Shown in pieces: positions 1-54,348 of a stretch of DNA of 64,000 bases (the first letter of the stretch is position 1; each line of letters begins with the position of its first letter). The stretch is taken from assembly GCF_964355755.1 (NCBI RefSeq), contig NC_092673.1, positions 33,291,648 to 33,355,647 of the forward strand, written 5' to 3'. The position numbers and the translations under genes are program-made. The stretch comes from Antedon mediterranea. Taxonomy: Eukaryota; Animalia; Echinodermata. Below the pieces are notes generated by a model. That model was not told the origin of the DNA. It worked only from the letters and a program-made list of their open reading frames with translations, and ran no database searches.

Positions 1-1608
1 ATATGTTATAGCCAAAGCTATCTCCTTTAGCAGAGATTACTGTAAGCTCTTAATAAAAATACTGATGACATTTAGTTAAATAGATAGGTCAGCGGTCAAG
101 GTTCAGAAACTCCTTATGGTAAACATTGGTTTTTTTGGTTGGAGCTTTTAGGATAAAAATATGAAACCATAATCTGATAGCTAGTAGAATAAACAATTGG
201 GAGTGATTTGTTCAACAGGAATATACAATGAATGCATAACTTATGTACATTGGAAAAATAAAAAAATGAGTTAAATTGTTTAAAATGTTTTAATTAGGAA
301 GGACTGCAAATGCTAAGGTTGGCATGCTAAATTTGTTTAGCGGTTAAAGATGCACTTGAATTCGTGGACAGAACCAAGTGTTGAGAACCAAACATGCAGG
401 TAAAATACTATGGGAAATTTTTATGAATTATTTTAATATATTGTATAATAATAATATGTGAAAAACTATTGTATTGGTAGATTTTTAAGGAAGAGTTATT
501 AGGTACACATTAAAGTTGTTTTAAAAAGATGATGAAATATTCAACTTCTGCAGGCTCTAAAAACACATAGGACCGCATATGGGAATGTAGCAGGATATGA
601 ATTATTAGAGTACAAGGACATGCTTCACTGCGTTTCCAATGCAATAAGCTGTGTTTTGCATATGGCGGACGGTTTGCTCTGTATTAAATACCTTTCCTTC
701 GTTTACACTCATCACACCTGCCTTCTTCAACATGTTCTTTGTTCACAAAGGAATAATGACAAAATAAAAAATGTAAATATATAAATGATCCCTAGAAAGT
801 GAGGAAATGCGAATTCGGCCTTCTACGGTAAAACGGAAACACACTTGAATTGATGACAATTTTTCATGTACATATAGTGTCCTTCTGAATGATACAACAG
901 TAGAGCCTTGGGACACTACTATTCAGGGGACACTTTACCATCAATTTGAAATTTATACACTGCGGACACTTTGTTAGGTGGCAAAGGCTTTCCCTTAATA
1001 GGAGTTCTACTGTACTGTACGACAAGATAGCACGGACAGATCTCGAACTTATGCCTTCTCACACACAAGTTCAATACCATACCATTGCGCCGTCTTGCTC
1101 TCTATTAATTCTTTCAGGTTGTTTTGACACATCAATTGTTAACTCTTAAGTTAATTGAAAATACGCAAATTAATGTTAAGGATATATACACTTTTAAAAA
1201 AAGCTATGGGTCATTTGAGGTCAAACGCACGACAAACGAGAGGTCCATACCGTAAACCTTCTTTGGATAGGTTGGGTAATAACCTAACATTATCAAAAAG
1301 AAATAAAATGACAATAGAACGAAAAGAAAGAACACAGAATTAAAAAATAAACACAAATAAATAAGAGAGCTGTAGAAAATGAAAAAGAGAACAATACATA
1401 TATCGGTAACTAATTCTTAATTTAAATAACTCTACTATATTTTTATAATTTAAATTACTAAAATCATATAGAAAATTTCATAAAGTTTAATTTGGATTCA
1501 AGATTAAATATTATTACTTTTTAATGTAATATGTAACAAGATTTGTCTATCTATATTAAGTTTATATTAAGTTTCATTATACATAAAGCTAAAACATAAA
1601 ATTCATAC

Positions 1609-1713
1609 CACAGTCTGGAGGGACCAGAAGGTCTATTTTCTTCTCCGGTAATCGAGGCCAGAAGACTTTGACAGCCTCTCGTAATTCTCTATCGTGACGG
1701 TCACGATCGACAA
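1609..1713 (-). CDS. Cav2 exon 35 (pre-IQ): [35 protein letters not shown]
   Basis: 105 nt, phase 1->1, AG/GTATGA. Confidence 0.93.
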
Positions 1714-4700
1714 CTGAGGATAAATGAAAAAAAAGCTTGTTGAAATTTACACTTTTTATGCTATTAAACTTACAGTGGGTACCAATTCCAATCAAACCAT
1801 TATGTTATTTATCTACTATATACTTTTTTCTGTTGTGGTGAAATTAAATTTTGAATTGAATTGAAATTAAATTGAATTTTGGGGTTTTGAAGGGAAACTG
1901 AGATTAAATTTGATTTGGACTTACCATTGCCGATTTTAATATCTAATGCTGTTCTAATGAGAGCCATCAATGTCGTGGTAAAATGGACCTCCATCTTATC
2001 GTTAAGTGGCATGTTCATTCTGATCAATCGCTGAGAAAGGAGACAAAATACATTATATAATTGAAAAAAATTCTTATCCTTTTCAAAACAAGTGGGATCA
2101 GACTTTATGTGGCTGAAATTGCATACTATTCCAGGTATAGTAATTTCAAATATGAAAAAAACCTTAAAAATGCTTAGAAACATTTTACTAACCTTGTAAG
2201 CTATTCTAACAGGGCAATTTGCGCCAAATCCTACAGGAGGTTCCATTTTCCTCAACATGGTATACATTTTCTCATAATTTATCTTCCCCCTGAAAAAAGA
2301 ATATAGTTACAAAATAATTTTAACATATAAAATCGAATGATGTCAATAAAGTAAATTTGCAGACAAAATAATAAATTGTAACGCGATCAAAATAGTAAGT
2401 GCTTACGTTGCCGCAGGCTCAAAATCTCCCCAAATCCGAACATACTCATCTAAGTGATGAGCACCCAGAATTGATGCATCTCTTGTTAAATAATCAAAAT
2501 TGTCCATAATAACAGCAACGAAAAGATTTAACATCTGAAAATAAAACAAAACAAATGTTATTAGAATTGGAACATTCTTGCCTACACAGATTTATAGTAG
2601 TCTTGTCTACACCAGAGTTTTAGCAGTAGAATCTTGTCTAAACTGGTTTATGGTGGTAGGATCTTGTCTACACCGGTTTATAGCAGTAGAATCTTGTCTA
2701 AACTGGTTTATAGTGGTAGGATCTTGTCTACACCGGTTTATAGCAGTAGAATCTTGTCTAAACCAGTTTATAGAGGTAGGATCTTGTATAAACTAATTTA
2801 TTGTAGTAGAAATCTTGCCTACACCGGTTTATAGATGTAGAATCTTGTATAAACTGTTTATAGAGGTATAATCTTGTATAAACTGGTTTTTACTGGTAGG
2901 ATCTTGTGTACACCGGTTTATAGCAGTACAATCTTGTCTACACCCGGTTTATAGCAGTAGAAACATCACCATTTTAAAAAATAAACTATTTTGTTCACAT
3001 TTATAAATGTTGTGTCTCCAACATTTTAAAAAAAGACCCCTGAGGAAAAAAAATGTGCACAAATGAAAGGCATGATTAGACTGTAAAAAAATTAAATTTA
3101 CTTACCAAAAATGAGCAAAGGAAAATAAAGCTAACGAAATATACGTATGCAAATGGGGATCCACATTCATTTCCTGCTTTTCCTTCACACGCTCTACCCG
3201 ATATACATGCTAACATAATCAGTTGCCAACTCTCTCCTGTTGCACACCTATACACGTTAAGAAACGTCCAATAAAAATGCATATTAATATAAATTTAATA
3301 CGGAGTCAAAGATGAAATCGGTGGCATTGCCTATAATTTCAATATTAAATTATTTGGATATGGTTAATTTTTTAGAAAATAAATTTAGGATAAGATGCAA
3401 ATCATGCAATTGAATAAAATCCCCAAAAGTATAAAGAAGATTTGAGCAATATCTTAACTTAATATTAGAAAGGCAACTTCTACACAACAGGCTATTATCA
3501 CGCATTACAAATACAATGTTTAATGTTAAAACGGGAAAGTTGACTGTATACATATTTTCTGTCTATATTGCAAAACAAAAGCACACTTTTATTTTGAACT
3601 ATCCGCCATTTTGCTGCATTCTAAAGCATTCTAGCTGATATATTTTTTTTTTTTAAACCTGTTTAGTTTTGTTGAAAATATGCTCTTAAGATACATACAT
3701 TCATAATAAACAAAAGAAGGGATACAACATTTATTATATAGCCCTCTAAGATATATTGAATTGCAAAAAGAGTCTCTACAATAAGACAATTAAATATATA
3801 TTTTAAAATTTATAAGCTTTTAATTTAGACCATCAATATCACTTTTAAAGCCAAATGATTTTGTTTTTGTTTTTTTTAAACAAAAAAATTATAAAATTTA
3901 GAAGTTCTTTCTCAATATGAGTCAATTTAAATGTAAATTGGTTTTTTTTTCAAACAAGATTATATAATGTAGAGAATCTTTTTTGAATTAAAAAACATTT
4001 CTGGACGAACATTTGAACATTATTTGTTACAATAATTATTTTTATAATATAGTTTATAAAGAGAAAATGAGAATTTAATAAATATTTAATAATCCTTTTT
4101 GTGCGTGCTTGATTTGCCATATTTGCCATATTTTTTATCACGACCTGAGCGCTAAAATAATATTTTGATATTTCCTTGTAAATAATATTACAATTTTATT
4201 TATATTTTCACAAAAATGCTTTTAGATTAAATAATCATTTCTCTTTTAGAAAAACATATTTATTCCCAAGAAAAGATTTTTAAAAAATATAATGGTTAGT
4301 TTTGCAGTAAAGTTTCATGTTATTTTGAACAATAGAATTACACAATACTAAAGAAATGACAATATTTATTTTAGCAGAGAACTGCTACTGTAAATAAACA
4401 TAAATAGCAACATTTAGCAAAATAAAGAAATTCAAAAGAATAAAATTATATGTCAATAAAAGTACATAGAGTATTAAAGAATTGATTTTAACTTGATTTT
4501 ATCACATTGTTTTATAAAGAACTAGATTAATCTGGTTTGAACCAAAGTAAACTGGTAAAACAATACTGTTTAATAATTGGTTAACTAATTTATTACATTT
4601 AACCAGTTTAAACCAGTTAAAGATGTATTGTCCCTTGAAACACAAAAAAATGAAGGTCAAAATATTCTAAATTTAAAGTGGCCATATCAAAGTAATATTA

Positions 4701-7700
4701 AAGTTATTCACTTTAAGTCGAAAATTTGAGCAAAAAACAAGTTTACGTAATTAACAGGTAAATTAGTTTGATTACATTTCATCTGGAAAATCGTCACGAG
4801 CGAAAGTAAACAAAGATTTCAAACCATGAGTACGCATTATGCATATGCTAAATTAGGATTGTTTACAACTCGTCACGGTTAAGAACGTATTTTCACACAG
4901 ATCATGAGGAAGTTTTATGATTATGCATACAGAGTAGCCAAACAAGCGCGTTTCATTATGGGATATGTTTTGATTGAAAACTTTGACTGGAAGTCAAAGT
5001 CATTTTTTTACCAAAAAAACGTCTGTATTTCAGTTAAAAATTTTTTTTTTTCTACAAATTTTTGGTGATAGTTAATAACTATTATGATACTTCAAAATGA
5101 CCCACCTTTTTTCGAAATCTTTTATTTTTAATTTTTTTTGGAATTAGTCAAAGGGACAATACATCTTTAAATACAGACTGTAAGTAACTTTAGTTGGTGC
5201 ACATGTAGTAAAGGAGTTTCATGCAATACGCCAAACTTTTTTAAAACCTTGTTTTTTGAGAAAAGTATTAAATTTTGAATTCTAATTTATTTTTAAAAAA
5301 TGTTTTTTTATCTTTTCTTTTGCATTATATAGCAATTTTATTATTAATAAGAAAGAAATACGCAGGAAATTGATAGGTAAGGAAGAATAGTAATAGTTAA
5401 GGAACACTGTACAGGTATGAAAAGGCTATTTTGGTTGTAAAGACAGCAACGAATACATTTAGTAAAACCTTTAAACAATATAAAAACAAAGATGGTTATT
5501 ACATAAAAGATCATCACCCCATTTACACTTACTGGCCTAAAGGATGGTGAGTGTTTTAAAAGGGAGTTTATATTTTTTTAGTCCATTTCTATTTGGTTAA
5601 GTTTGTCTTTATTCATGAGTGACATTATGGTCACTGTTTGACCATAATATTTTGCTCTATGGTTTTGATGTAGGTCAAAATATATGTCAAATATGACACG
5701 CTTGATTGCATATGCCAGTCTAAACCAGTTCCAACCTAGTTTGAGGAGCTTACAGTAGGGTTGGCCCAAAAGTGTAAATGAGATGAAAGATACATACAAC
5801 AAATGCATTGATATCATGTACTGTATTAAGCATATAATGTAGCCCCTTAGTATGTGTTAGCAAGATAAAATTCCAAAAAAGATGACTACTATCCAGCCAG
5901 CAAGAAACATATTCCCGTCTAATAAACCAAACATTAGGTTCAGAAACCACATATAAAAGTTGGAATACTGAATATCAAAGTAAACGCAGTCAAATTTAAC
6001 AAAAATCAAAAGAAGTAAAGAATTTCAAAGAGGTAGCCAATACATATGGGTAAAAGGTAAGTGTCAGGTTGGGATTTATTAAAACATCTTTTTTCCACAT
6101 TGATGATAGGATAGTTGGTGTTACATCAAGGATCAATAGACAAGGATATATAGACGGGACACCAGACACAATTTTTAATGTTTCTGCTATTAGATTAGGT
6201 CTACCTGAATAGTAGTAGAAGAGCTGTAAAGAACAGCTGAAAATTGTTATGACTATTAATCTCTGTTTCATCATTGAGTTCTACATTTCCGAACATCTGA
6301 TGGCGTTGCATGCGTGTGTGGAGAGAAACAAAAAAAAAAGAAAAAACACCAATGCTTATTGTTTGAACGATTAAGTGAAATCAGTTTTTCAACTGATGAC
6401 CTAGATTTCCATGAATGTGAATAGGTATGTAAAAAATGCAAAAACTTTAAAGCTCAATTACAGTCTCTGCCATCCAGAATCAGAAACAATGACGTTGTGT
6501 ATTCATAATGACCTTATATTATTATTTTATTATTATATTATTTTTGTACTGCTGTAGTTTTTGCAGTTATTACACACCTATGCATACTCCCTGGTCTAAC
6601 ACATTTGTTTGGTTGGCATTTTGCCAGAAGTGAAACATTACCTGAACAATAGCAGGAGCGACATAAAAAAGTTATGAAAATTGTTGTGCGTGTTGATAGA
6701 GCTTGAAGTATCAGAATATTTAATATCACCGAATATCTAGATTCAAAAGCATAAATAAAGTTAACACATCCTTTAGAGACTTCCAGTCCCTTTAGAGTTG
6801 TTTCACCTTTGACCTATGAAGAAATCGGCCAGTAGATTATGTATCGCCCTCCCGCCCTACCCCACCCTTGGTTCTTGGCATGATAAATCCTATTCTACAC
6901 AGCTATACTAGAATTGAGTGCATTAGTTGAAACCATAACAGGGCAGGGAAGAATTTGAACCAGAACAATGGTGTGACTTCCACCACCAGAATTATGGACA
7001 AGAACCTCAAACCGGCTCAAATTTTATGCCCATTGGTTGTTGTAGTGCCCCCCCTGAATTAGCTTAAAATTTAATTTTCTGTCAACTAGCAAATCTAACT
7101 AGCTAAATGAGAAAGCAAACAGCCAAAAAAAAAGCAAATTATTATGTTGTCGAATTAATTGCTAGGGTAAATTTTCGAACCCTGTAACCGCTCAGTCACT
7201 CAACCTACGATACATTACGATCATTAAACTCCGTTATTTAATCACAAAATTCAACTGTAATAATGTCACTCAAACAAATTAACTACCTAAATACTATAAA
7301 AAACTTTAATCACAAATTGTTTAAAAACAAAAAAGGATATTTAATGTTTTGCATTATCCTAATAATCTAATCTAACCATTAACTCAACATCATTGCAAAT
7401 CACTCTCTCAATACACTCAACAACCTGATTTTGATGACATATCTGCTACTCCTATCCCCCCCCCCCCCCCAAAAAGCGAAACATATTATTTGTTAATTTT
7501 TCAAATCAAAAAATAATGTAATTATTAAATAAATATTAATAGGGGATTTTAGGAAAGAATGTATAGGGTAAATTCTTTTCTAAAATTCCTATTACAATCT
7601 ATTTAATAAATACATAATGCATTTTTTGTCTAACATCAATGCAGGCATTTAAGATAGAGTATTTTCTGTAGTCACCAAGTCTATTATAATTTTAAAAAGC

Positions 7701-10700
7701 AATGCTTCAGCGCACAAGGCTGAATATGATACAACATGGTTGTATGTGTATCACACATGACTTTTTAGATTCATGGACCTGGTTCTAACTTCAAATGATA
7801 AAAACAGACAAGGGAGAGAGAAAAATACTGCCAAAAAGACTCACCTGCATTCCAATAATTGCATAGATAAAGAAAAGCATTCCAATTAATAGGCATACCC
7901 ATGGCAATGCCTAAGACAAGTAAAAAAAGTGAAAAACAAAATATGTTAAATGAATGTAAATATGTTTGATTCTGGATGTTTGGGAACCCATAGAGTAGAA
8001 CCAACCTGATGTTTAACAAACTTGAAAAACATCTTATCAACTTGTTTTGTATAGTGTATAAAGATGGTTTTCCATTATAAAAATGTACTGCATACTCAGT
8101 ACATTGAGGAGATTCAGTGGCGTAACAGCTATGAGCGCTAACTGGCTAAACTCATGTGCCCCAGACCTTAAGGAGCCCCAGAGCATGAGCAGCCTCAATC
8201 AACTATCCAGTGTTGGAGGGCCCTATAGAAGTGCTACACCAGGGAGACTCAATATTTTTCGGATGAGACTTAAACCAACCACCTGAAGATCAATAGTCTA
8301 GTGTTCTTACTAAAAAGCTCACGCTGATAACTAGGGTTAGATAGAGTATGTAAATACAATAACGTCTATGGAAGGCAATATTACAAAGTCATAAGAAATA
8401 TCATTTTACCTTGAAAGACTGCACAAAAGTCCAAAGTAGGATTCGAATCGACGATCCTTGACGTAAAAGTTTGATGAGCCTAGCTGCCCGAAAAAGCCTC
8501 AAAACACTCAAATTAATAAATCCCTCCTGTAAAAACAAACAAGAAAGTGTGTCATATCAAATAAAAATTAAGTTATTCTGGTTATTTGTACCTGCTATAC
8601 CCTTTTACAACTACACAGAGAGAGATCAGTTTCCTCGCCACCCTTTAAGACTTTAAATATTTTTATTTTGCTTATCTATCCTATTTTTTTATATATAGTA
8701 GCAGTACGAAAGTTTGTCCCATAGATTGCAACATGCCATTTCCACATGCAATTTGAAATTCATCAAAAAACCTTTAATTTTATAAGTCAAGTATTTAAGT
8801 GACATAATTTGATAAAAAATATTGATATTCAACGCAACGAAAAGATATCTGGATTATAGACACTGTTGACAGATGGTAGCATGCACATGGATCTAGAGAA
8901 ATCTTTAAATCTATGACTAGTACTAAGTGCGTTTTGTGTGTTTGTATTATATGGTTTATATTACACAATACAGGACAGTCAAATCATTATGGAGAAAAAA
9001 GCGCAGAACACGTAGAGTAACTCACATCAAATGAAAAAATATCCTTTCCTATTGATAGTGTGATTCAGAATGAAATCAACAGATCTTTTTTCTTATGATA
9101 TCAAGCTTTAAATGTGTAACAAATTTGAAAAAAAAATAGTTTAGTGTGTTTTGACACTTTCTAAGAAATCCCTTTAGAGACCATTAAACGGGGAAAAAAC
9201 AAAAAGGTACATTTCTGGAACAATTTTCTCGATTTTCAAACAATTATCAGTGGTAAAGGTGTCTCAGAATTAAATCAACTATAAGTATTAATTATCAATA
9301 AAATACAAATACATTGAAAAAAACACACATTTGTTACAATTGTAAAATTGATGGATCTGTTGATATTTTTTTTGATTCCCTTGCTTGTTTCCGTCACAAG
9401 GTTTTGTCTAATGTCAGTAATATTTAAATGTTGTCTTGTTATCTGTTGATTTTTGCTTGTATATTATATGTTATATTTTACGACTTTCAGCCCTGTTAAT
9501 GGTGACGTTTGGTCACTGTAGGGTGATGATGAAATAAAATAAAAAAAAAAATAAATAAAAAAAAAAACAAAGTGTGAAAATTAATAGTTTTGAAAATTTT
9601 TTAGAATTTTGAAGCTTCTAGACGAAGGAATTCTAGGAATATTTGTGATAAAAAACAGCAATAAAAATTAGAGAGCAAAAAAAACAAAAACCAGAAATAC
9701 AAAAGATTAATGGGAAAAAGACATATCTATTTGTGGTGAAAAATGAATAACGTGAAAACAACACAATTTATCTTATTATCATAGAAGGAAATATAAAGAA
9801 AAGATTTCTTTGAAAATAAATTTGCTCTGCAAAAATACAAAAAATACAAAAATTGTATTATTTTCAGGAATGAATTTTGCCTAACCATAAACAATGTTTT
9901 AAGTATTAGTGGTTTTTGAAAAATTATTGTATCAGGACAAAGAGCAAACTGTAATTCACAAACACCAAGTTCGTCAAGAAATTTTTGACAAACTTCGGAA
10001 AACTATAGAAAACAGCAGCCAATCAAATTAAGTTATTGTAGTCAAGTGATCCAGCAGATGAACACAAAGTCAAAGAATATTTATGTGTTTAAACAACAAA
10101 ATACAAGACATAACACAAATGTATTGTCTCTTTAGTACTGCATCAACTGAAACAAAAAAAGTCGCAACTAAAGGAAAAAATAAAATAGCAAATTAAAATT
10201 CACAAACTTCAACAAATCATTTTAGGATGCACTTCAAAGTATTACATAAATATTGCATAATTTAATTTTCTAACATGTTAGTAAGAATACAGTATTAACA
10301 CTAAGTTACCCTAACAAAATGTATACGTTTAAAAAACATGTGTAATTTGTTGAAGATACACAAAAGATGTATTAATTTAAAATTACTTTAAATTATGAAT
10401 ATATTGCGAAGTTTAAATGACCATTTCAATATATCTAATAAAAATACCCTAATAAAATACAATGACTTTAAAACATAAAATTCTAAAAGTTAAAAGTATT
10501 TTTAAAGAAAGAATTTAGTTTTTGAATAAAATTACATAGGATGATATGATATATAAATATAATATTGCAGTGTGCATAATATCTAAATAAGAGTTTACAA
10601 TTGATTACATAATAATACAGGTTTGTAAAAAGTAGGTGGATCTGAGGTAGATAGAAAGATGCCTAGCAGATGGCTCTGCTAGAGAGCACCTTTGATTGCA

Positions 10701-13700
10701 GGCGTGAATAACTAGTCTGTAGACATTTGGGATTGCCACATTGCGGAAGGAAAGTCCAGTCAGAACATGTTCTGTTCAAGTAGAATAATGTACTGTATGG
10801 TAGTAGAGTATATTTTAGAAAATTAGCATGTCTGTATGCATTGTACATACAAAAGATAGTAGCTATAACTTGCCCGCTATCCCTTCTACCTCTGAATCCA
10901 TTTACTTTCCACTGTATAAAAACCCTGATTTTTGTAAAAAGCAAGCAACAACGTTACCATACAATTATTAAACACAACACGTTAGTAATATAAATATATG
11001 GTAGGTACCAGCCAAACGAAAGTGCAAGATATGGTGGTTTTTGTGAAAAATGTCAAACAAAAATTGAGTTATATAATAAAAATTCACAGGCATATAATAA
11101 TTACTAAACCGCCCAATGATATCTTAGAAATAAATTTGTTGAAACAGTAAAGATGTGAAAATCTGTGAGAATGAGAAAAAGCCACTCCAAGCAAGATTCG
11201 AACCAAAACCTTCCGCTTGATATGCAGATGTCCTAACCATTAGACCACTGGTTCAAAATTGATTGGATAGTGTTTCTTTAACACATTTAGCGTGGTGCAG
11301 CACAACATTGAATATCATTATTTTGTATTTAATTTGTATAATTTGAATTATTATACAATTTGAATTAATAACACAAATTTCACAATAACCAACAATAAAT
11401 AAATATAGGGGTGGAAACGGGGGGAGTTAGTTTAACAAATACACTATCATCTAGTGATATCTATATGATTAGTAATAACAAAAACACAAAGACACAAAAC
11501 ATGATGCTCTGAGCAGATCCGTGGCGACTAAACCTGAGATAGGAATCACCAACAAATTATAAATTTAGGAACTAAAACAAAATCATAATTTTATTCATTC
11601 ATTATTAAATTTTATATGCAATTATAGCATAAATAATCTTTTTATTAAAGTTATATAATTAACAAATTTAATTAAGATTTATTGATTGAAAGGCCGCTGC
11701 AAGAATATACTTAGAGACGTGACACTATGATTACATAATTGTTTGTGCATGAATGCCCAAGAGGCAAGTATGGTTCCAAACACAAGCATTCCACAGTGTT
11801 CGTGTGCATGGCAGCTCATGAGTGTGTGGCAGTCAATTAGAAAGGGCCACGTATTAATACTTACTTTCTATGTAGGTGAAAGAAAAACACAAAGGCAATA
11901 CATGGTTAGCAGAGAGGAATGGATATATAGGGGTAACACAGGAGGGGGGTTTTGTGGCAGAGGGGTGGCAACAGTTGATGAGGTGTCATATTAGGTATTG
12001 GCTGGTTAACTACTGTAATGTATATCCTTCATTGAAGGTTTACTAACAAGACATAGGAGTAGACAGTAATATATAAACAGATTATTATTTACATTAATGA
12101 ATATAATAATGATCAAAAGTAGAACATTTTTTTTTAAATTCAAATAGCAAAATCAAAATTAAAACACATTATATAAACAAATATTCATAACATTGGTAGA
12201 TAATATTATCTGACGGCGGAGAGAGGGAGGATGTAAATTGAAAAAGCTGTTTATTCGCACAGGTACATCCAAAAACAATATACAAGGGGTTTCCCTGTGT
12301 GAAATATTACGTCACCAAGCGTCGACTTTTATTCATTAAAGTTTTTCACTTTGTCTCGGTACAATAAGCTTGCATTTTTGCCGTACACTTAAAACAAAGA
12401 GAAACCCCTTTTTGAATGTTAATTTTAAGCAAGGCCTATGTAATGATATATGAATAGGTACTTTATCATCAGGGGGTTACGTTGGGGAGGTACATCTTTT
12501 TATCATCATTATTATAGCATCTAGTTTAAATCGAACCAATTCAAACACACACAGATGTAAGCAGGTCAATGACCTTAAGGTTAATGAACTCAAAGATTAC
12601 ATGAGCATGTTAATTTTAGCAGGTTAATAATATGGATGTTATATTTTTATCTATTTTTGTTAGAAATGAAATTATTTAAATGGTTTTAGCCATTCAATTG
12701 AAAAAAGTATATATAATAAAAACGTAAGGATCGTCATTTTCCGAGTAATTTTTTTTAATTTTCATTTTTACTTTATGTTCTAAAAAAGGTATATATGCAA
12801 TTGTAAATTAGTAAACAACACTTAAACCAAAATAAATAATTTTTGAATAAATACCTTTTTCTGAGACTATTTTTAATATATAACAACCCAAAGTTATACC
12901 GATAAAAATAAAAACCTGGCCAATTTTTAAAACTGATGCTTTCTGTGCATGCCTTAACTAGAATACTTTTTCATTTTTGGAAGAAAAGAGTTATCAGTTT
13001 TAAATAGAAGGAAAAAAAAACTTACCCCATATTCAGAGACTAGGATGTCTGTAATACTACCAACAACACAAATGAAGTCAAAAATATTCCATGCATCTCT
13101 GAAGTAATTCTAAAAAAACAATTAATTATATTTTATACACCTTTGTGTTTCCTTGCCACTTGATTGGTTGATATTGTTTTTTTTAAAAACTCTGTCTACA
13201 CTATCAAACTAGTTTGACAAAAAAAATGTGAGTGCTCAAATATGGTAGTGATATTGGCCAATATGGTAGTGATATGACATCATCGTGTTCATATATGGGC
13301 ACATCACATTTTTCTGTCACATAAAGTTTGTTAGTGTAGACAGAGCTTAAAACCTAGCCTTGTTAAAACAAAGAAACTTTTCAAAGAAGTCCCCAAGCCC
13401 GTGTGTACAGGGTCTGCAGACTATGTCTAGGAGGGGGCTTACCACCGCCGATTGTGTTGCGAAATAACATTGACGCTCTATCCCCTTTGATTACCATCCC
13501 AATGTCAATGCTCCTCAATATTTCAACTCTAGTACACATTGCATGGTATAGGAAGGACAGCAAATTAGAATTAAATGTCAGATCACTTACCCTAACTCCA
13601 TAAGCTACCAATTTTAGGATACATTCCACTGTGAACATTGTTGTAAAAAAAACGTTGAAGTATTTCAAAATGTCATCCAACTGATCAGGTTGATCATAGT

Positions 13701-16700
13701 ACTAAAATAAAATAAATATATTTAAAACTGTTTATCCATAATACTTAACAAAAACAAAATAAAATCAATATATATTTGGTATATTTTGAGATTCAGAAAT
13801 ATACCACAGTAAAAGATAATGGTATGAGATAATGGACAGAAAAAAGAGCCTATTTATAATGTACCCCTTGAGGGCTCTATTAAACTTGTTTATTTATTAA
13901 AGCATTATTTTTCTTTGGTATCTATTAACTTGGATAACCTTAAATTTTCTCACGTCTTTGCTCCAGCCAACTCTTTTGTGGAGTGGAGACCCACTTGATA
14001 GTTTGATTTAGTTCGCTTTTGGGAATCCTGTCTCTCTCTATTGTTTGTTATTTTTTGTTATAATTATGTGAGACAAAATAAATGAAATGAAAAAAAAAAA
14101 AAAAAAAATTCATTTTTCCACTATTCCTCATACATGTAAATAATAATTATATACAAATATACAATTTTTCAAATTTGAACTTCCAGGCTCGCGGCGGGCT
14201 ACAGTACTTTAGTTTACTTTTTCCATCCATTGCCAATTGTTTTTGTATTTTACTTTATTGTTTTGGCTAAATAAATGAATGTATTGGAGAAGTTGCCTAT
14301 GGAAGTTGGAAACAGATCAACCCTTAGTCTGCATTACTCTCTAATATAAGGGGTTTAAATGAGTTGTTCCCCATAAATTGTCCTGATGGTGAAACTTTAT
14401 AAGTTCAAAATGTTATATCCATATTCAATTCACAATCAATTTTAATTTGTATATAATTTATTTTAATGAGTTTTATCATTTAAAAAACTTTTCAAAAATA
14501 GTTAATATCTTTTGAAATGAAATACCTCAAACAATAGGTGTTATTTTAAGCCACTGAATGCTTTAGAGCACATTTTTTTATAACAAGGCATTATAATATG
14601 ATATGATTATTATATATAACAGATACTTACAGGCATCATGAGAGTTATCGTGTTGATTGCAATCAGTGCCATGATAAAATATTCAAAGGGGGATGACACA
14701 ACAAACGTCCACACTTTAAATTGAAACTTTGTCTGATCCTTTGGCATAAATCTGTCTACAGGTTTTGCAGTAATGCAAAATTCTATGCATTGTTTCTGAA
14801 ATACAACATTTATTTGGCAATTGTAACAAAATACTGTGGTTTGGTGGTTATGATGCTTGGCTACCAATCTAAGGGTCCTGGGTTCAAGTCCTGTCATATG
14901 TCAGGGTTTTTTCTCATGACAATTTACAACTCCACTCCCAAAGACTTAATAATAAGTCTTTGTTTATGTAGAGCATCTTGTGTATATGTTTGTCTTGTAA
15001 AATTTTAAATAGTTTATCCATCCTGTAATTGGCGCGTTACTCGCTGTTGGATGAGTATGAAATAAATAAAATAATAATAATATTAATAATCAGTAGTGGG
15101 ATGGGCAAAATCTTAAAGACCGGTTTTGACTGTGGACGATAAACGGCAATAATAGAAAAACATTTTTCTTACAGAAAACAAAGGATTTCTAGTTTCGCAG
15201 AAAAAGGTATAAATTTTATTTGAGGCTTAGGAGTGAAGCTGAAAGAGTTACAATTCTGCACTAGGTCAGGATTGAACCCTGGACCTAGGGTTGGAAGACA
15301 AGCATGTTAACCACCATACCATTATTAAAGCATAACCTGCATTTACGCCGTCTTTGATGAAAATAATAATTTTTTCGCAAGTAGTTTCAATGTAGTTAGT
15401 ACTAAAGTACGAAATTACGTCAGCGTAGGGCAAACTTCTGACCAATTAAATAATGAGCCTTAATCTAAAGATAATTTATCTCACCTGGTTCTTATCTATA
15501 TCACCATCTTCATACTGCGCGTCTCCCTGTTCCTGAAATGTAATGATGATGAGGGCAACGAAAATGTTCAAGAAAAAGAACGGAAAAATAATGAAGTACA
15601 CTACATAGTATATGGCCATCTGTGTACGTGAGTAAGGTGAAGGTCCCTGGCCCTCCACTGTGGCATCCATTGAGTATTTTAAAATGCTGGAAAAAAAAGA
15701 AGACAATTTTAACACATAAAAAAAAAGCATATACACCAATTAATGAGAGGAAATGTAGTCTGTGAATTGTATTAAAGATGAAATACACGCCAGTACATTG
15801 TTTTTAACAAGTCATTTTTAACATATTTATTTTTACATGAATACAGTTTTTTATTCCCTTCAACTTGGTAAAAGAGAAAAAAAAATGAGGTTCGGAGGTG
15901 AGGAGTCTGTTTAAAGTAGTTATTTTTATTTGATGTTTTTTATACATTTCTATTTTTAATCCGTGCCTATTTATAATTGTTATTTTATATTATTTTATTC
16001 ACTCATAAGCCAGAATTGCAAGAGTTTGATAAATAAATAAATACATATATGTCTAAAGAGATTTAATATTTTGTCTTGTTTTCTTTTAATGCTTAGAAGA
16101 AATCTTCCACTGTGTAGACCTTTTATTTTTTTTGTGCCTGTGTGTTGTTTAACTATAGTTGCATTACTAATTGGTCAACTTGGTCATATCACTACCATAT
16201 TTGAGCATATTACTACCATATTTGGGTAATTTCAACTTACTCAGGCCACCCTTCTCCTGTGGAAACTGTAAATAACGTTAGCATCGATGCGATAACATTG
16301 TCATAATGAAAATCGCGCTTTTCCCAAACTCGTGCCTCAACACTAGTAATCTCATCACCTTCATATCTGAAAAAATTTCCCCTGAAAAAAAAATATAGAT
16401 ATAGATTACAATAAGAGATATGTGTTAGTGCAATGTAATTGTCCTCATTGATGCGTGTTGTATTCTCTTCAGTATTAACACAATACAGTAACCCCTCATT
16501 GAGCCCATCCTCATTCAGAGGAGACGTCTATTAAGGCCAATTTACACAGACGAGTGGTAATGGTAATAAAAATATAGAATCCATGTTAATTGTTATTCCT
16601 GATGAACTCTTACAGATGGACACTTACACACAACACGGAGCAGCTGAGAGGTTTCTGCTCAGGATAGATTCAGATTCTATGTGGGACAAGCTTTATGGTT

Positions 16701-19700
16701 TTCCGCATATCGTTACCGCTCGCTGTGTAAATTGGCTTTTTAAAGACACTTTTCCATGAAATCAACAAGGGGTAATATATAACACACCTTATTAAAGGAA
16801 ATCTTTGTTGGGTCCTGAAAGTGTCTTCTTAAAAGTGTTTGTAAAAAACAATCTCAATTTAAATTCACCTTTTGATTTAGCTTTCTCTTCATTAATTTGT
16901 ATTTTTATTTTATTTTTAAGTAATTTCAATCTACTAAATCGGCAAAAAAAATACAACCTCTCTAAAGTATACAAGTTGTGTTTTGACACTCCATATCCTG
17001 GACACACATAAGTACGAAAGAAAGGGGTGAGGAGAGAGAGACGAAAGGAAAGGTGTGGATATTTTGTATAGAAATTGTCAGTTTCCATTGATTAGGAATA
17101 AACTTACATGCAATCTGGTTCTGTCACTTTAGACATGTCGGTACAATAATTAAATCGCCCCTTTAAAAGTTGAACACCTATGACCGCGAAGATGAACATG
17201 AACAGGAAGTAAACGATGGCGATGTTTACAACGTTTTTGACTGAATGTACTACGCAGTCGAATACAGCCTAAAATGATAAGAAAAAAATGTCAGTAATAT
17301 TGATTTTCAATCAAGTAGAACACACAGACTTGTATCTAGCCACAAATCAAACACATTGCTCGATCCATGGTTGTGGTGGTAGAAAAGTCTTTTCGGATAA
17401 GTACTACTACTACTGTATAAACCATGGTCCAGTGTACACATCTGGCTCATGTGCAATTTAAAGAACCCAGTACATCTTTCGAGGTGAGTAGGAGGTTACC
17501 CCGGTGTACTAGTATATACACAGCCAATGTCACACACACACACACTTATAACTCATCATGAGAGCCCCTTGATTGTCAGCATACGCTGTTTAGGGTCACC
17601 CTCTATAAATAAGGTTAAATAAAAATATAAAAAAAAACATTATATATAATCAGTTAAGACAATTTCTCCTGATATATAAAAAAAAAATGCTGAAATAAAC
17701 ACATGAAAATGAGGTACCTTTAGTTTTGGTATTCTTTTGATGGTTTTCAGAGGACGCAATACTCTCAACACACGGAGACATTTAATAGTACTTAGGTCTC
17801 CACTACCTTCACCCCCAGAGCTACAAAATGAAAAAATCAAATGAACATATATTTTTTATATAATTTACATACTGTGTAACCAAGCGGGTATAATCTGACT
17901 TTTAGTAAGCCCTGTTTACACTTGCACTTGTTGATCCTGTAGGGTATAAGTTTTAGTAAGTCCTGTTTACACTTGTTGATCCTGTACCGCTCAACATTCA
18001 ATGACTAGTGAATGAATATGAACCAATAGGTGAAATGCATACATTAATTTGCAACAACACATTGTAAAGTGGGCACCAATTACACATGTCATGGCCATGC
18101 TAGTTTGTGCCATTGATTAAATGGCATTTACACTAGACCAGTAGTGAAAGTGCCTATAAAGAGGTCTAACTAATGAACATTTCTTGGCCAAGCATACCTA
18201 GCAAGCAGGCAAATTTTCATCTACTAAGCTATGCTTAAAGGTGCCCATATAGACATGGTGATGTCATATCACTAGTAAATTTGGGCATATTACTACCATA
18301 TTTGGGCTTATCACAATTTCTTTGTCAAACTAGTTTGATAGTGTAGACAGAGATTAAGATTAAAATACTTACGTTGAATTAACACCAAATGCCACAAGGG
18401 CACAGATGACAACCGTAGCATCTAGAATGTTCCATATATCTCTGATATATGCACCAGGGTGCAATATCAGGCCCATATCCACTATCTTCATAATTAACTC
18501 AATTGTGAAGATTCCCGTGAAGAGATAATCAAGGTAATTTAATACCTAAAAGAAACAAGCAATAAACATTTTAAATTTAAAATTAGGGTTAGTTAGTTAA
18601 TTTAGACACAGAAACAAATAATGTGTTAAAACAATATTGATGAGGTGTCCTTTTTTCTCCCAATGTATTGTTCTAAATACAAGCAAGCACTCAGTCAAAC
18701 TCAACCGTTCTTTTCAGAACTACATACGTGGTATACCGCAAAAATTATATACATTCAGTCATTTTCACCAAACATCAGAACAAAACAGGTGCATTGTGGG
18801 ATAATAAATTTCTTTCTAACCAATCATTGTTTGCAAACTTCTATTTTTGTTATGGACCATGGTGACAATTGGCTAGCAATGGCTATGACTGAGCGCTTAC
18901 TGGCTAAACCTAGGATCCCCGAACTCAAGGCCAGAGCTGGGCCGGAAGGTAATGGCTATGAGCGCTTACTGGCTAAACCTAGGAGCCTCGAACTCAAGGC
19001 CAGAGCTGGGCCTGAAGGCAATAGCTACGAGCGCTTACTGGCTAAACCTAGGAGCCCCGAACTCAAGGCCAGAGCTGGGCCGGAAGCCCCAGAGCTGTTC
19101 TCATATCAGAGGGCCCCTTAGATTGCCGAAACCAGGGGCTTTCAGCCTCTGCGTTACGCCACTAATTGCATAGCAGAAATATTGAAAAACTTGCTTTGTT
19201 TCGTTCACTTTCTGTGTTGACCGGATCTTCTGCTGCTAACGCTATACTACTAAGACCAATTACAATCATGATGGTGATATCAAACCATCTGTTTATTACG
19301 CATTTGTGGACCAGCACACGGAAGCTGTAAACATAAAATAATAAATAAATATAAAAGAGTTTATGTTATGTATAAATTTTCTTACACCATTTTTAATAAC
19401 GGTTGGAGCTAATTTAAACCGGCAAATCATACTGGCAAAACCTGCATCGGAAGACCACAGAAGATATAAAAAGAAAAGAATGAGTCTTAGAGTTTTTAAC
19501 TTACGGATTTGTTGAACTGAAAATGAACAAGGAACTGAATGGGACAATTGCTTTTGGAACCCCTTCTTCTTCCTCCTCCTCTCCTTCTGGAGCTAAAAAA
19601 ATTATAAAAAAAATCAATTAGGTCAAAGGTTAAATGTGAACAGCTTTCAATTACACAGATTCTATGCACTACTGTTTCTCACAATGTCTGATGAATATTT

Positions 19701-22700
19701 TTGTATTAAAACACAATTCGACTTTAAACAACATATTTATGAAGCAGCAAAAATTAATATAAAATATATTAAGTAAATAGAAATAATAATTTTTTATAAT
19801 TTTTCGAATATAACATAATATTGGTTATCTAACTACAAATAATTGAAAGATAAAACAACAAAATCAACACTGTAGAAAAAAAACACAGTATATTTCAAAG
19901 TACAACATTCATACTAATTAATAACATTCATATCGACCTTTCGTTTTCACGAAAATAAAAGGGCAAATGTCAAAACACAAAATAACCTACTATATTTTGT
20001 AGGTATACCTAGTACCTAGATTAAGCACACACAGTTCATACCTTACATACTGGGTTCATTTCCATATATAATTACAATGGTTCGCATAAGTCTACTGTAC
20101 ATGTATACCTATCAATACATATCACCAGGGGCGGATTCAATGCGTGCGCGTACTGCCCCTTTGACAGACAAAAAAAACTACTTTTTTGATATCCTCTCTT
20201 TTAATGTTAGCACTCCTTCATTCGGTAAATCTAAGATCTGCCATTGACTGTCCAAGTTATAGTTGATGTCTGTGGGTTAAGAATCTATACTAACTAACTA
20301 TATTGCTCTATGGTCTAATGGTATTTTACACGCTTTGAATTCAAAAGGAATGATTTAATCCTAACAAAGTCATTCATTTTACACCAAAAAATTACTAGAC
20401 ATTTTAAATCGGAGTTTCTTTTTCGATTTAACTACATCATTTCTGATTATTGTATACTACTTATTTCAAATGTATTAAAATATTTCACCAGAATAGGAAA
20501 CAAAACTAGAAAACCTTCTTCTTCAGGATCTTTCGTCTTCTTCTTTATAGAACATTCACAATGACACGAACAAACCCAAGGACATTCACATTGGGGATAG
20601 GAACAAGGAAAATGAATTCCATTCACGTTAAGATGGTCATAGTATCTCTTTAACCGGACTTTCCACGTAGCGGTATCCGATTCTATTTCTTCTTCTAATT
20701 CTTTTAAAACAAAAATCATAGTTACAAATACACAGAAACAAAAACAAACTAAACTGTTAACTATCCCAAATAGGGCAACCTCGGGCTGGCAGAAAATGCC
20801 TGGCTTTGATGATTAAGAAAAAACACTTTGGTTTAAAAAAAAATAAATTTTCAGAGATTTTGTTAATACTATAGTCTAAATATTATTATTTTTTATTTTC
20901 GTAATTTCTTTATGTTTCAATGACAGAAATACAATTTTTATTTTTAGGATATTAAAATATTAATCAAAGGAACATTAATTCTTTATTATTGTTTTTTTTA
21001 TATCGTATTTTGAGATTATTTCCATATATTAATTATAACAATATTCAAGAATGAATTTTGTCATTAAGATTTAGAATAACATCACAATTAGATATTAATT
21101 TATTCTTTTTCTTAGTATAGTTTGGAAATTCAATTTTCTAATTGATTAAAAAAATTCAAAAGGAAATTATAAGGATGGTGTTTTCAAAATATAATCTAAA
21201 TGGCAAAGTGAAATTAAATAATCATTATTTTTCTATTAATTTGGGGTAATTCCCTTTAAAATAAATCTCAATTTAACAAAGATTTAAAAAAAGTGATTCC
21301 ATCTCATGCAGATGGTGGAAAAATTAAGTAATACAATTTTCATTTCAATGTTAGTTATTAATAATACATTAAGCATAGAAATACACCAAATCCATGATGT
21401 AAAGTGATTGAGAGAAAAGTAAATAAAAATGTCAGTGATGAAGAAATATTAAGTGCTTAAAATATCAGAGGGTATTAAATAATTTGCATTTAGAAAAATT
21501 GAGTATTAAAAATGTCTGTTTGACTATCGTCAGTGTCAGTATTTTAAATAATATGGCATGAATTCCCAATGTTAGTTTTTAATTTAGTATAGAAAATGAT
21601 AAACATGCCATGAAATGTGATTGAGAAAGTGTATATAAATATCATGTAAGAAATAAATAGTGCTAAAGAATATTTAAAAAATCAAAATTTATTTTAAAAG
21701 TAAAGACAATATAATCAGGGATGTGCCTAAATTCGGGGGGGGGGGGGGGGTCTACTTAGGACTAAATATTTCCGCCTGGCACCAATTTTCTTTTATAGCT
21801 GAAGCTGAATCACCGATTCAACTTTTTTTTTTTTTAAACCATATTTAATGAGGGTGATCCATCCAGCTGTTGCTGATCATTAGGGACCCTCAGAGGTTCA
21901 CAAGACAAACATATACACAAGATGCTCTACATAAACAAAGTCTTATTACAAGTCTTTAGGAGTGGGGTAATTTGGTCCTTAGAAAAAATCCTGACATGTG
22001 ACGGGCTTGAACCCAGGACCCTTGGAGTGGTAGACAAGCATCATAACCACCAAGCCACAACTCCACTCCAAATTGCAAATATATCCTGGAATTCGCTTGA
22101 CCAACTATACTACATTACGCCCTCAATCATTTATATTCTTCTGTGATATTTTTGGCGATAGTTAGCACAATGTTTTCTGTAGTGTGAAAAGGCCATTAGA
22201 CGATACAGCAAGAGGTGAGGTTGTTCATCCCAAAATTTAAAAAAAATCAAATGTATTTATTACTGTACAATGCCCCAATGATTTAAATTAATAAACATTG
22301 CCCAAAGGCGAAAAAAACTAAACCGGTCTCAACCAGTTCGGATCTCATCTAAACAGGTTATGAACATACCAGGAATTAACACAATCGTCTCTCTCCAGTA
22401 TCACATACAGTACATGAAAAATGATATCTTAAAACTATCGTTAGTATTACCACTACTGTACTATGAAACCATTGTCACATGATGACTAACCATGTTATAG
22501 AATGACCAACACATACTTTCAAAAAAGCTTGACACTCAAAATCTAAAGACGTATGGATGAAAAATTTACGAGCCTTTGTTCAAATTTTAAATCACTAAAT
22601 TTAAGCAAAATTTAGATTTTACTTTGAATCATAAAAAAGAAAAAACCTTAAAACAAACAAGAATTTACACAATGAATAAAGAATCAGTAAAAGAACAGTT

Positions 22701-25700
22701 GATTAGTAAATCTAGTATACCTTTATACCCATGTGCAATATTTTATAATGCATAGTCAGCGTGCCATAGTTTAAATTACCAGTGCATAATGTTCACCAGT
22801 GCATTTGTGTGTTAAACTAAACCAAATGGCATGTACCATTATCAATAAAGGTATAACATACCAACAATATGGAACTGAATCATTGTGATATTATTAAAAC
22901 AATTAATAGTAGAAATACATTTTTATACTATTGCTAATTGATTATTAAATAAATTAAAGTAGGATAAACCTCAGAATATCAGATCAGAATATAAATTTAT
23001 ATTTAATTTATATTTATTAAATCAAAATTATTGTTGATGCAAATGTTCGGATTATGCAAATTATATCAGAAGATTTCATTTCCTTTTTTATAGTGAATTT
23101 TTTAATAATTCCCAAAACCAATAGTTTCTACTTCATAATTCACTAATATTTGATTCAGTTCCAGATTGACATTTATTCAACCTTCTGATTGTTGCATTTC
23201 GACTACGAAAGCAATAGAGCATGACAAACATTTGAGCACGCTCAGAAGCCCATACTGACTTCAGGACCAGATGGTGATAGCTTTTGGGACTACAGAAATT
23301 GCATTAGTCAAAAGAAGAGAACCTTGTTTATGATTAATTGCTTTCGTAGTCGTGATTGTCGAATAAAGAAATGAAATGAAATGTCATATAGTTTAGCTTG
23401 TTACAATCAAACTAAACATGTAAGTTATGCTTAGATTTGCCTACCTCCTTCAGCCTTTTTATTTACGTCATTCGACTTCCCCTCTTCACTGTAAAACAAA
23501 AAATTATATAACAATATTTAATATTGATCAAACATAATACGAAGCAAAATTATACTGATGTTTTGGTTGATAGACTTCAGATAAAAACAGGAGGCTTCCT
23601 TGATGCAGTATCCAACACAATTTACAAACATAAAGAAATCAGAAGCCATAACCATAATGCCTGTGAGAGTTGAACATATGGCCTTCTAACTGGCCTAGAA
23701 AGGGTCAATTGAAGGACCTAGGGCCTAGCACGAGGTGAATGCATGGCCTACAGATTGGCCTAGAAAGAGTTAATATTGCAGGGCTTGACTATCCTAGAAG
23801 GATTTAAATAAATGGGCTTCCAACTGCCTTAGAAAGAGTTAATTCTAGGGGCTTCTTATTAACCAAGCAAGAGCTAGACTTACATGGCAAGTTGTCCTGT
23901 ATCAGGGTTTGGTGATCCCTTTCTGCTCATACTTGGTGTCTGTTGAACTAACGCTTCCATCTCTCGATTGATTTTATCCTGTTTCTCTGCGTTCTCTAGC
24001 TCTTCCAATCTGGAGAGCTCTTGAGCATTGGCTAAGTTATCCACGGCAATGGCAAGGAAGACATTCAACAGAGTATCTGAAGATCAGCGGCTAAGGAAAA
24101 CTTTATTTTTCATTATTTCATTCAATATGGCAGCAACAACGAGAAATAGTCTGGAGACTGGGAATTGAATGCTGGAGCCTGGGAATTGAATGCTGGAACC
24201 TGGGAATTGAATGCTAGACCCTGGGAATTGAATGCTAGGCCATGGGAAATTAATGTTAGACCCTGGGGATTGATTGCTAAACACCGGGAATTGAAATACT
24301 AGACCCTGGGAATTGAATGCTAGACCCTGGGAATTGAATACTGGACCCTGGGAATTAAATGCTGGAGCCTGGGGATTGAATGCTGGAGCCTGGGGATTGA
24401 ATGTTACATCCTCGCACTATTCAAGCAAGAGTTGAACTTGGCCTTGCAATGTTTAAAAAGGATACAGTTACCGAAGAGCACCAAAATGATAAAATAAATG
24501 CTAGCCCACATGCCAGATGGTACACCACCTTGTGAGACGATGCCGTTGTACATAACAGCATTCCAATCTTCCCCTGTCAAGATCTGGAATAAATCAAACA
24601 ATTGAATACCAAATTTAAAGAAATCACTGTAGCTTTGTAAAAAAAAATAACTAAAAGTAAGAAATTTAAGGGAATTCTTCAAAATGGTAAATCTACACAT
24701 CATTTGAAAGACTGTATGTCTGAGGGAGACAATCATTGATAAACTACATTGCGAAAAGGGTTATGATCCTTTAAGGCCAGAATATTGTTATCAAAGTCAA
24801 TAGACCAGCACAAGGTTAGGATTATACTCTGGTACTAGGTTGGGATTGAACCTTTAACCTTGGAATTATAAGGAAGGCAGGCAAGCAATCTACCACTACC
24901 TTTCTTTGAAATCTTACCTGGAATACAGTCATGAGAGCTATGGGGAATGTGTCAAAGTTGCTGGATGGTTTATCCTCATTAGGATTAATTGTATTGAAGC
25001 TAAAACAATAAAAAAACAATCATGTACAACTAGAGAATTTACTAATAATAATAATACACAATGTTACTACATTTTTTTCAGATTATGTTAAATTAAAGAA
25101 ATGATTCTACGTCAATTTCACAATTTCAAACTGAACTAAAAACATGTTATCACTATTGACTATATTCAAACAAGGTTAGAATTAGTCAATAATACTATTC
25201 ACAAAACACCTATTCTAATTGTTCTTTATAGATCAATAACGGCTAATCTTATATGATCAATACCAATCAATAATCTTCTAATAATTGTTGTTTAATTTTA
25301 ATATCATGACACAATGAAACATTGTAATGAATCATTTGTTTTGAAATACTTATACGTAAACATACTGATACATACATACATTTAATACATTTATTTTTTA
25401 AATATTAATCATATTCGGCTGTCTATTTCCAGCAAATCTATCTACTAATTTGACTGCTGTAAAGGACCAGATAATATACACATCAAATTTGTTTTATTTA
25501 GATAAATTTGCAATGAAGTAGAGTACAAAAAACAGAATACGACGCACGTAGTCTTCCTAAATTTAGAATTTTTCAAGAACACATGAATATATTATCATAA
25601 GTTATATTTCATTATATCGAAAACATGCATGCAATGAATAGGGGAATAAATTAGGTTGGGTTGAATATTGTGACGAGGTACATAAAATTGATGATTATGG

Positions 25701-28700
25701 GAAAATTAAAAAAAAAATGAATGAAATAATTTATCATTAAATTCGCTAAGGTAATATTCTAATTTTTAAAAGTATGATGATATTAATTTATTCTCTATTG
25801 TGCATTATGGGAAAATAAAAAAAAAATTTGAATGAAATATTTTATCATTAAATTCGCTAAGGTAATATTCTAATTTTCAAAAGTATGATGATATTAATTT
25901 ATTCTGTATTGTGCATTTTACAATGGATTTACTGTTATTGTTTAAATTGGATGAAAATTTAGATAATTTGTTTTTTTGTATATATATAGTTTGTAAAATA
26001 AAATTGTTGTCATTGGTCAACTCAATTGAATATTGTCCTTGCGTTACGTTCTAGTCGGAACAAATCTTTATAGGGGTTAGCATACAGAAATATTAATTTA
26101 TAATATAAATTTTATATATTCACAGTACACTGTATAACATGCAATACAATTTTCGCATTTTGCAATCCATATAATACACCCCCAATGCCCATTATTATAT
26201 GGTTTGATTGTTAAACACCTTATCAACAGTAAATCTGCTATAATATATGGTTAATTTGTAGTAATATATGATACCCACAAATTAATACTTAATGTATAGA
26301 ATAATGCAATTTTCATATATTTACAGCACCAACGAAAAACATCTTCCGTTTGTTAGCTAATCTCCCAAAATGAATGCACTGAAACTGTATTGACATTTCC
26401 CACAATGCATGTATTTCAAAATATTTCCCACAATCAGGATGTTAACATCTTCCACAATGCACTTTCCAATCACTCAACATTGTTTGTTTGGGGCGCATGG
26501 ATTGCGATAGGCGAGAATTGCTGCAATCGTAACTTTTCAGCTACCGCACACATAATTACCTTCCACCAAACAACTGCATCCCCAGCATAGCAAAGATGAG
26601 AATGAACAGGAAGAGTAGGAACAATAAACTCGCAATGGATCGTAAACTACTGAGTAGGGAGATGACTAAATTCCTTAGAGAGGACCAATAGCTATAGGTG
26701 GATCCGATGAATGGAGAATATAATGAAACAGAAAGATGAAGAAAATTATAAATTAATAATCAATGTAATATATATATTTAATGATCTGATAGGGTGATGT
26801 TGATTCCATTGTTTCTTGTTTGTTTACATTCATTGTAATAGTAACTTTTGCCATTTGGAAACGAGCCACCATTATCGTACGAATTTAGGTGAAAAATTAA
26901 TCGCAAAACCGTGGCAAACAATTTGAAATACGATTTGTTTTAAGCACTATTCAATTATAAATTTGTTTTTTTTCGATAAATTTCCATTAATTGTAGCGAA
27001 GTCGAGAAAACTTTAAATAAACATAAAAGCTTGGTTCCCACTATGATGTGCAGCGCAAGTAAATTTGATTAATCATGTCATGATTGGTAAAATTTCTTGT
27101 GTTGCGCCTGCGTTTTTGCTCGTGTCCTAGTGGGAACCAAGCTTACTAAAATTCAATTTATATATTTGTCCACCATGGGAAATTCAGATTGTTAGTTATA
27201 CAATTGTAAACAAGAAACAATGGAAGCTTGGATGTCTTCCATGATATGGTAGGTGGAGAGATGATTCCTCGTCTGCTACTTACTATCCACCAAATAGTTG
27301 CATTCCGAGCAACGCAAATATTACAAGAAACAGGAAAAGGAGAAAGACCAAGCTTAAAATCGATTGTAAACTATGGAACAAGGAGACTAGCAGATTGCGC
27401 ATTGTCTTCCAGTATCTGTGAACAAGGATGTTAATGTTTATTTCGGTACATATAAGTTAGACCTGACCTCTAACCTACAAAAAATATTCAGAATTAAAAG
27501 TTAACCATGTGCAGTTTGATATTGTCAAATTACTTTTCTTCATATCACAAATAAAAAATAAAGAAGCACGTTCATGTTATTTAATTTTTCGTTGCATACT
27601 TCAGTGAGACATGTCTATTGTTTGCTAGACTTTGAGAACGTAAACATCATGTCCGGATGATTTGACTTTTGGTACTCGTCACGATTTTTAGAAATTATTA
27701 TGTTACAGTTATTTTTCCTAGATTAATTTTTTTTTAAATATACTCGCCTTGTTACTTTGAAAATTCTAAGCAAACGAAGAGCTCGCAGGACACTGAGGCC
27801 AAACGATGAATCTTTGAATATTGACCAGATGACCTCAAACAAGCTCGCTAAAATGACCTGTGAAAAACAAACCAATAAACTCCTCAAAAAAGCTCAATTA
27901 AAAGTGCTATATTCCTGTGGGTATTTTGTCATTTTTTTCTCCTCACACACCCTCATCCATTCTCGAAGTTGTAATCCTGAATCCATTCTTGAAGTTAAAT
28001 ATACTTCACAACAAACCACCTCACATAACAACTTAAGATGTCGGCATGTATCATGAAACATTATGTTATAAAGAGGTTTTGTACAGAGCTAACAAAAATA
28101 TGCAAATTACACTATCATGTGCATTAACATACCATGCAATCAAACTTATTAAATGCTGACTTGAAATATATCTGAGGTCCTAAACCATACATTTTTATTG
28201 ACATCTCCAAGATGAAGACGCATAGGAATGTTATTTCCGCATAGACTGTAAAACAAAAGAAAGTTTTAAGGTTAGAAAATGCTAAAAATAGATCTGAATA
28301 GATTGGTGGTAAGATGCTTGTGACTGATCCTTATAAACCCTAGTTTTTTAGAGGTGTCCCCTGATTAGAAGCTAGTTTTAGTGTTAAAATTCCCCTTGCT
28401 CTTTCCACAGGAAGGTGTCTGACTATGGTGTTTCAAAGGAAGGGTATCCTAAAGGTTGGGTTCTATCGTTGGCATGCGAAAATAGAGTTTTACTGCCTTA
28501 CAATACATTTTTTTATGTGTATACATATTTGTTATTTATACGGTTGCGAAACCGCCGTAATATCTGATGGTATAAGATACGAAGGTCTATATTTGTATAG
28601 TATTTGATAAAACTCTTCACAACTTTTACAATATAAAAACATACTTACAGAGGAAGGTTCCGAGCCATGATGGTTGCGGATAGTGCTCAATAGCAACACA

Positions 28701-54317: not shown

Positions 54318-54348
<31 letters not shown>

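Follow-up and report, generated by a model that had tools for sequence, protein, structure and literature searches.

Within a 64-kb stretch of Antedon mediterranea DNA (the window, 64,000 nt), the trinucleotide AAA at 11865..11867 on the minus strand is likely to be a genuine cassette exon of 3 nt in crinoid Cav2, one that is skipped most of the time. This candidate exon, in phase 0/0, would encode a single Lys, and was recognised from its sequence, its splice-site score and the proteins of related animals.

The Cav2 gene and the intron containing the candidate

The minus strand of the window (692..63999) carries part of a Cav2 alpha-1 gene, in which 37 exons were mapped (P0376 residues 97-1686). 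The exons match exactly the annotated 2489-residue protein (P0376) of the window's own cluster. The channel was assigned to Cav2 as it groups with Cav2 orthologues and contains the IVS4 motif RLFRAAR, and the top named matches of the window protein were echinoderm Cav2 channels. A quick tree with 24 rows, the root of which is not dependable, placed the window channel as sister to P0261 of Anneissia japonica (SH-aLRT 81), with which it shares 1346/1509 aligned residues (89%). A 50%-cluster search returned no crinoid sequence beyond those already found, and a profile search was dominated by vertebrate channels.

The candidate lies in a 4499-nt GT-AG intron (8527..13025, minus strand) of phase 0, located between the exons for IVS3 and IVS4. 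The upstream constitutive exon (13026..13109, minus strand) is an exact match to P0376 residues 1359-1386 and ends ...SEYG, and the downstream constitutive exon (8410..8526, minus strand; residues 1387-1425) begins EGFINL. Sequence alignment to 8X90 and 7MIX placed their junction nine residues N-terminal of the first S4 arginine, where human Cav2.2 (7MIX) bears its ET. An earlier, sequence-only reading of this DNA had equated the junction with that of the vertebrate Cav2 microexons, and both the aligned ET and the identity of the gene as a Cav2 orthologue support this.

Skipping of the candidate was observed directly. Run X1 was taken as RNA from its spliced contigs, and X2-X4 behave as DNA. 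A spliced X1 contig (depth 159) joins the two constitutive exons, 13026 to 8526, with nothing between, removing the intron whole; its short side spans only 28-30 letters, below the 31-letter bridge bar. No AAA-inclusion contig was listed in X1, a single run of unspecified tissue analysed at the contig level. Rare forms are lost from contigs, so X1 is evidence for skipping but not evidence against inclusion. In the comparison of inclusion with skipping in RNA proposed by the earlier reading, the one RNA-like run thus gave the skipped junction, but not the AAA junction. AAA is also skipped in 15/15 listed isoforms of the gene (17 annotated). The expectation that annotation would miss such an exon holds for the gene's own models, but not for the RefSeq models of Anneissia and Patiria, which carry an extra residue at this position.

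Several other features were noted along the gene. Two mutually exclusive exons encode S4 of domain I together with the preceding S3-S4 loop (~42470-42340 and 41052-40925, minus strand), used in 1/15 and 14/15 of its own listed isoforms, respectively; no such two-form pattern was found in the other echinoderm isoform sets listed. Drosophila cacophony has an IS4A/B pair, which is said to be absent from vertebrates (PMC11828482). A second, annotated pair covers the domain IV S5-pore loop (6736-6642 and 6296-~6205, minus strand; 13 vs 2 of 15 listed isoforms), and alternative forms of this region are present in Lytechinus, Strongylocentrotus and Amphiura. The II-III linker includes an optional 62-residue cysteine-rich exon (CPC/CxC-rich; 20700-20515, minus strand) that is present, with variation, in other echinoderms. 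No good microexon candidate was found in the domain III S3-S4 intron (18372-17821, minus strand), the site of vertebrate e24a; at that junction, sea urchin channels carry optional inserts of 7-16 residues. Finally, 13186-13350 is a very high-copy MITE-like element with terminal inverted repeats, with a depth >1e5 in contig pile-ups and a partial copy near 18351.

Splice signals and their chance expectation

AAA is directly preceded by a TAG acceptor (11868..11870) and followed by a consensus GTAAGT donor (11859..11864), and is the only YAG-NNN-GTRAG on the minus strand of the window. Moving upstream on the same strand, there is a U/C-rich tract that fills the interval from a UGC to the acceptor (11871..11894), the UGC itself (11895..11897, 30 nt 5′ of AAA), and then UCUC followed by the branch-point-like CTGCTAAC (11905..11915). 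The latter, at 11912-11905, is the sole CTAAC within 200 nt upstream of AAA, and 11906 is its predicted branch A. The nearest AG 5′ of the acceptor is at 12003, 134 nt upstream, which leaves a 134-nt AG-free zone (11869..12002, minus strand). This zone is inside an island of ~300 nt with 42-44% GC, compared with 31% GC in the intron background. The arrangement of TAG, AAA, GTAAGT and branch-like site described by the sequence-only reading was therefore recovered in full, as was its interval of ~130 nt free of AG. Contigs from 4/4 sequencing runs, derived from two samples, span the site with no differences listed there. Over 11222-13157 the X2 contig agrees with the window at every position, without gaps, so the element is not an assembly error.

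The proposed product, EYG-K-EGFINL, is consistent with the phase-0 frame and with splice sites belonging to AAA itself, but its inclusion was not observed. The Lys does not come from a NAGNAG acceptor or a shifted donor, as the annotated sites yield no Lys without a separate element. A 62-codon stop-free run 3′ of AAA has no counterpart in any orthologue.

We compared the site with the background of the window. A 4th-order Markov model built on window introns predicts 0.085 YAG-NNN-GTRAG motifs in an intron of 4.5 kb and 1.1 in the window; the bare core motif is unremarkable across the whole window. About one such motif per window is what would be expected if AAA were a chance or decayed motif, included never or at noise level, and the extra residue of Anneissia and Patiria an unrelated fixed insertion. 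We consider this explanation unlikely. It would account for the exclusive skipping in X1 and in the listed isoforms, and also for the weak acceptor, which outscores only 3/35 annotated acceptors (the same acceptors that trained the matrix). The length of the AG-free zone argues against it: only 21/2415 intronic AGs (top 1%) have an AG-free stretch of at least 134 nt, and the zone exceeds that of 34/35 annotated acceptors. Motif and AG-free zone are jointly expected ~0.0007 times per intron and ~0.01 times per window, values that are the product of two rates and apply to post hoc criteria, set after seeing the site.

By splice-site score, AAA ranked first among 138 possible 3-nt exons in window introns, narrowly (15.1 vs 14.6), and seventh among 3761 candidates of 3-30 nt. 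Candidates of 3 nt with scores at this level are expected 0.015 times per intron and 0.19 times per window, and the score by itself does not make the site special. The runner-up of 3 nt (7102-7100, minus strand; 14.6) would disrupt helix IVS5. Like 39380-39372 and 38439-38431 on the same strand, it has a high score, a short AG-free zone and no orthologue support, and we regard all three as background. The GTAAGT donor outscores 21/34 annotated donors. What distinguishes the AAA site is the combination of a consensus donor with a long AG-free zone.

Inserts at the same junction in other animals

The homologous or convergent microexon envisaged by the sequence-only reading gained support from inserts of 1, 2 and 8 residues at the same junction in other echinoderms. 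Anneissia P0261 reads EFG-N-EGFINL in a single model, with one additional residue (Asn) exactly at the junction. The protein has no other indel from reference position 943 to 1456 (513 residues), and just 3 one-residue insertions, including this one, occur over ~1590 positions. Genetic-code reasoning excluded two other origins of the Asn, since a donor shift would start with Val and a NAGNAG shift would give Gln, Lys or Glu. Patiria has an additional Ala in 4/4 isoforms. In Asterias rubens, Pro-Asp is inserted in 7/8 listed isoforms and absent in 1 (0/8 in A. amurensis), and Amphiura has 8 additional residues in 12/15 listed isoforms, with 3 lacking them. Because the inserts of Asterias rubens and Amphiura are optional and not obtainable by a splice-site shift, these isoform sequences indicate that cassette microexons exist at the echinoderm IVS3-S4 junction. 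For Anneissia and Patiria, the additional residue may instead be a fixed exon-edge insertion. No insert was present at the junction in sea urchins (Diadema 12/12, Lytechinus 15/15 and Strongylocentrotus 15/15, i.e. 42/42 listed isoforms) or in the 5/5 Apostichopus isoforms spanning the site.

Outside the echinoderms, Cav2.2 of the minnow Pimephales promelas (P0198, P0622 and P0623) has an additional Thr at the e31a position in 3/3 members spanning the site, possibly representing a teleost e31a of 3 nt. In amphioxus, the one isoform available has 4 more residues at the junction, and ladybird isoforms have optional inserts of 10 and 21 residues. The insert was absent in Saccoglossus (1/1) and Owenia (3/3), and the account of an Aplysia transcriptome in PMC10657410 gives none at the junction.

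A metagenome scan (16 of 64 parts) provided 75 loci, none of which had the echinoderm-type GSSIR; they included no genomic orthologue from an echinoderm or a vertebrate with this intron. Both exons and an intron call were available for 25 of the 75, some of them with doubtful sites or paralogues. Clean in-frame cassette candidates were predicted from DNA in 4/8 homologous phase-0 introns >1 kb on animal contigs. At one locus, the DNA predicts a 9-nt HDP exon (L007:8230-8238) with a 146-nt AG-free zone. The optional exon of Drosophila cacophony has the sequence HDE, and we take the HDP candidate to resemble it. Related in-frame exon candidates of 24-27 nt were found at L005, L011:2643-2666, L012:6618-6644 and L019:6194-6217; these are of the R-M/L...G-S-G type, with GTAAGTA donors, and lie in the Cav2 IVS3-S4 intron.

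These comparisons bear on the chance explanation from both sides. An indel-tolerant loop could hold unrelated insertions, and the residue is Lys here compared with Asn in Anneissia. However, the intron is the very one in which optional microexons recur across animals, and the Anneissia insertion is exactly one residue long and exactly at the junction. Very improbable is a third explanation, in which no Lys reaches the mature protein as AAA marks a spliceosome intermediate (ratchet or recursive type) or the end of a longer unproductive exon: an acceptor and a strong donor 3 nt apart would suit it, and 5/5 upstream AGs tested gave stops or frameshifts (poison-exon-like, and the ground on which a longer coding exon was rejected), but recursive splice sites generally have AG immediately followed by GT, the intron is merely 4.5 kb, an X1 contig is continuous over 11223-12717 with no joint to the AAA site listed, and orthologue protein models show in-frame inserts.

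Regulation, function and relation to known microexons

If AAA is a cassette exon, its weak acceptor, 3-nt body, distant branch point, long AG-free zone and strong donor would result in skipping by default, and inclusion would require a factor specific to certain cell types, neurons being the most likely. Microexons controlled by SRRM3/4 are reported to have a strong 5′ site, a weak 3′ context, and UCUC followed by UGC (10.1101/2024.09.17.613571). The AAA site has the corresponding layout of strong 5′ site, weak 3′ context and distal branch-like site, and resembles the SRRM3/4 (eMIC) neural microexons, which are 3-27 nt long, in its size, donor, acceptor context and upstream UCUC and UGC. It differs from them in that the UGC, at -30, is 5′ of the U-rich tract rather than between tract and AG. 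The Srrm3/4-type signature read from the sequence earlier thus fits in part; its long AG-free tract and UGC are present, but a UGC occurs within 60 nt of the AG at 14/35 annotated acceptors too. The YCAY motifs pointed out around the exon were not enriched: the 200 nt upstream hold 6 (P = 0.67 against shuffles) and the downstream flank 7 (P = 0.14), and the overall count of 13 in 403 nt compares with 11.2 in shuffled sequence (P = 0.29). Vertebrate e31a is reported to be repressed by Nova2 (PMC12149502, PMC5633781), which together with the partial fit weakens the case for Srrm3/4 control; the candidate itself has no YCAY excess. Our first guess is that an Srrm2/3/4 eMIC-type activator drives AAA inclusion. 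Fly eMIC targets include calcium-channel subunits, with cacophony not among the named ones (10.1101/2021.02.24.432780).

Inclusion would place one Lys in the extracellular IVS3-S4 loop, with a computed shift in loop net charge from -2 to -1. From e31a and work on the Cav1 loop, we would expect a modest change in activation kinetics and in the surface for gating-modifier toxins, chiefly through a longer or reshaped loop. The vertebrate domain IV insert has been reported to alter activation kinetics (PMC10657410) and agatoxin sensitivity (PMC11828482), and in Cav1 the flexibility of the IVS3-S4 loop is reported to set activation (PMC5279877). As relatives insert Asn, Ala, Thr, Pro-Asp or Glu-Thr, which are uncharged or acidic, loop length or geometry appears a likelier shared effect than the charge of Lys. 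This weakens the earlier emphasis on the positive charge that Lys would bring. By analogy, a Lys-specific effect is possible; such an effect has been modelled for the domain III insert (PMC11580629).

The closest known system is vertebrate e31a (6 nt; NP in CACNA1A, ET in CACNA1B), seen as EFG-NP-NN at the junction of P0112. AAA shares with e31a the IVS3-S4 junction and preservation of frame and, as in an e31a-type cassette, has its own AG and GT within the phase-0 IVS3/IVS4 intron. e31a is optional in vertebrates; the candidate is predicted to be optional, with only skipping observed. In contrast to e31a, AAA has one codon rather than two, adds a basic residue and belongs to an echinoderm. 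e31a proper is 6 nt and encodes NP or ET, whereas AAA is 3 nt and encodes Lys. By analogy AAA would work like e31a, but we do not class it as e31a because the two differ in size and sequence and need not share one ancestral exon. Drosophila also has an alternative exon at the IVS3-S4 junction (PMC10657410); cacophony-type exons are likewise optional and in the same place, but have three or more residues rather than one. Reported 3-nt microexons include those of mouse Ncam, Drosophila troponin T (Lys) and cytohesin (Gly), and the single-codon exon of cytohesin-1 changes function (PMC8042270, PMC6314551). Like the candidate, these are single-codon exons, and they are regulated cassettes, but all of them lie outside echinoderms and outside the voltage sensors of ion channels. 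We found no mention of cacna1 in PMC12626420, and no echinoderm or single-codon case at this junction among the papers listed in literature searches; supplementary microexon tables for fly and zebrafish could list one. Splicing at the junction in vertebrates and fly, and 3-nt exons as such, are already known.

The AAA candidate reveals no new mechanism. If real, it would reduce a classic splice event in channel tuning to its smallest possible form, and would extend this event to echinoderms, bridging flies and vertebrates. We propose, tentatively, that a microexon at IVS3-S4 could be ancestral to bilaterians or repeatedly regained, ranging from 1 to >20 residues with crinoids, Patiria and the minnow at the one-codon minimum, and that in echinoderms an eMIC-type programme might use one residue to retune the presynaptic channel in particular neurons. 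With the natural series K, N, A, T, PD, NP, ET, HDP and 8-9 residues, the effect of loop length on gating could be told apart from that of residue chemistry, and an ancestral microexon from one reinvented repeatedly.
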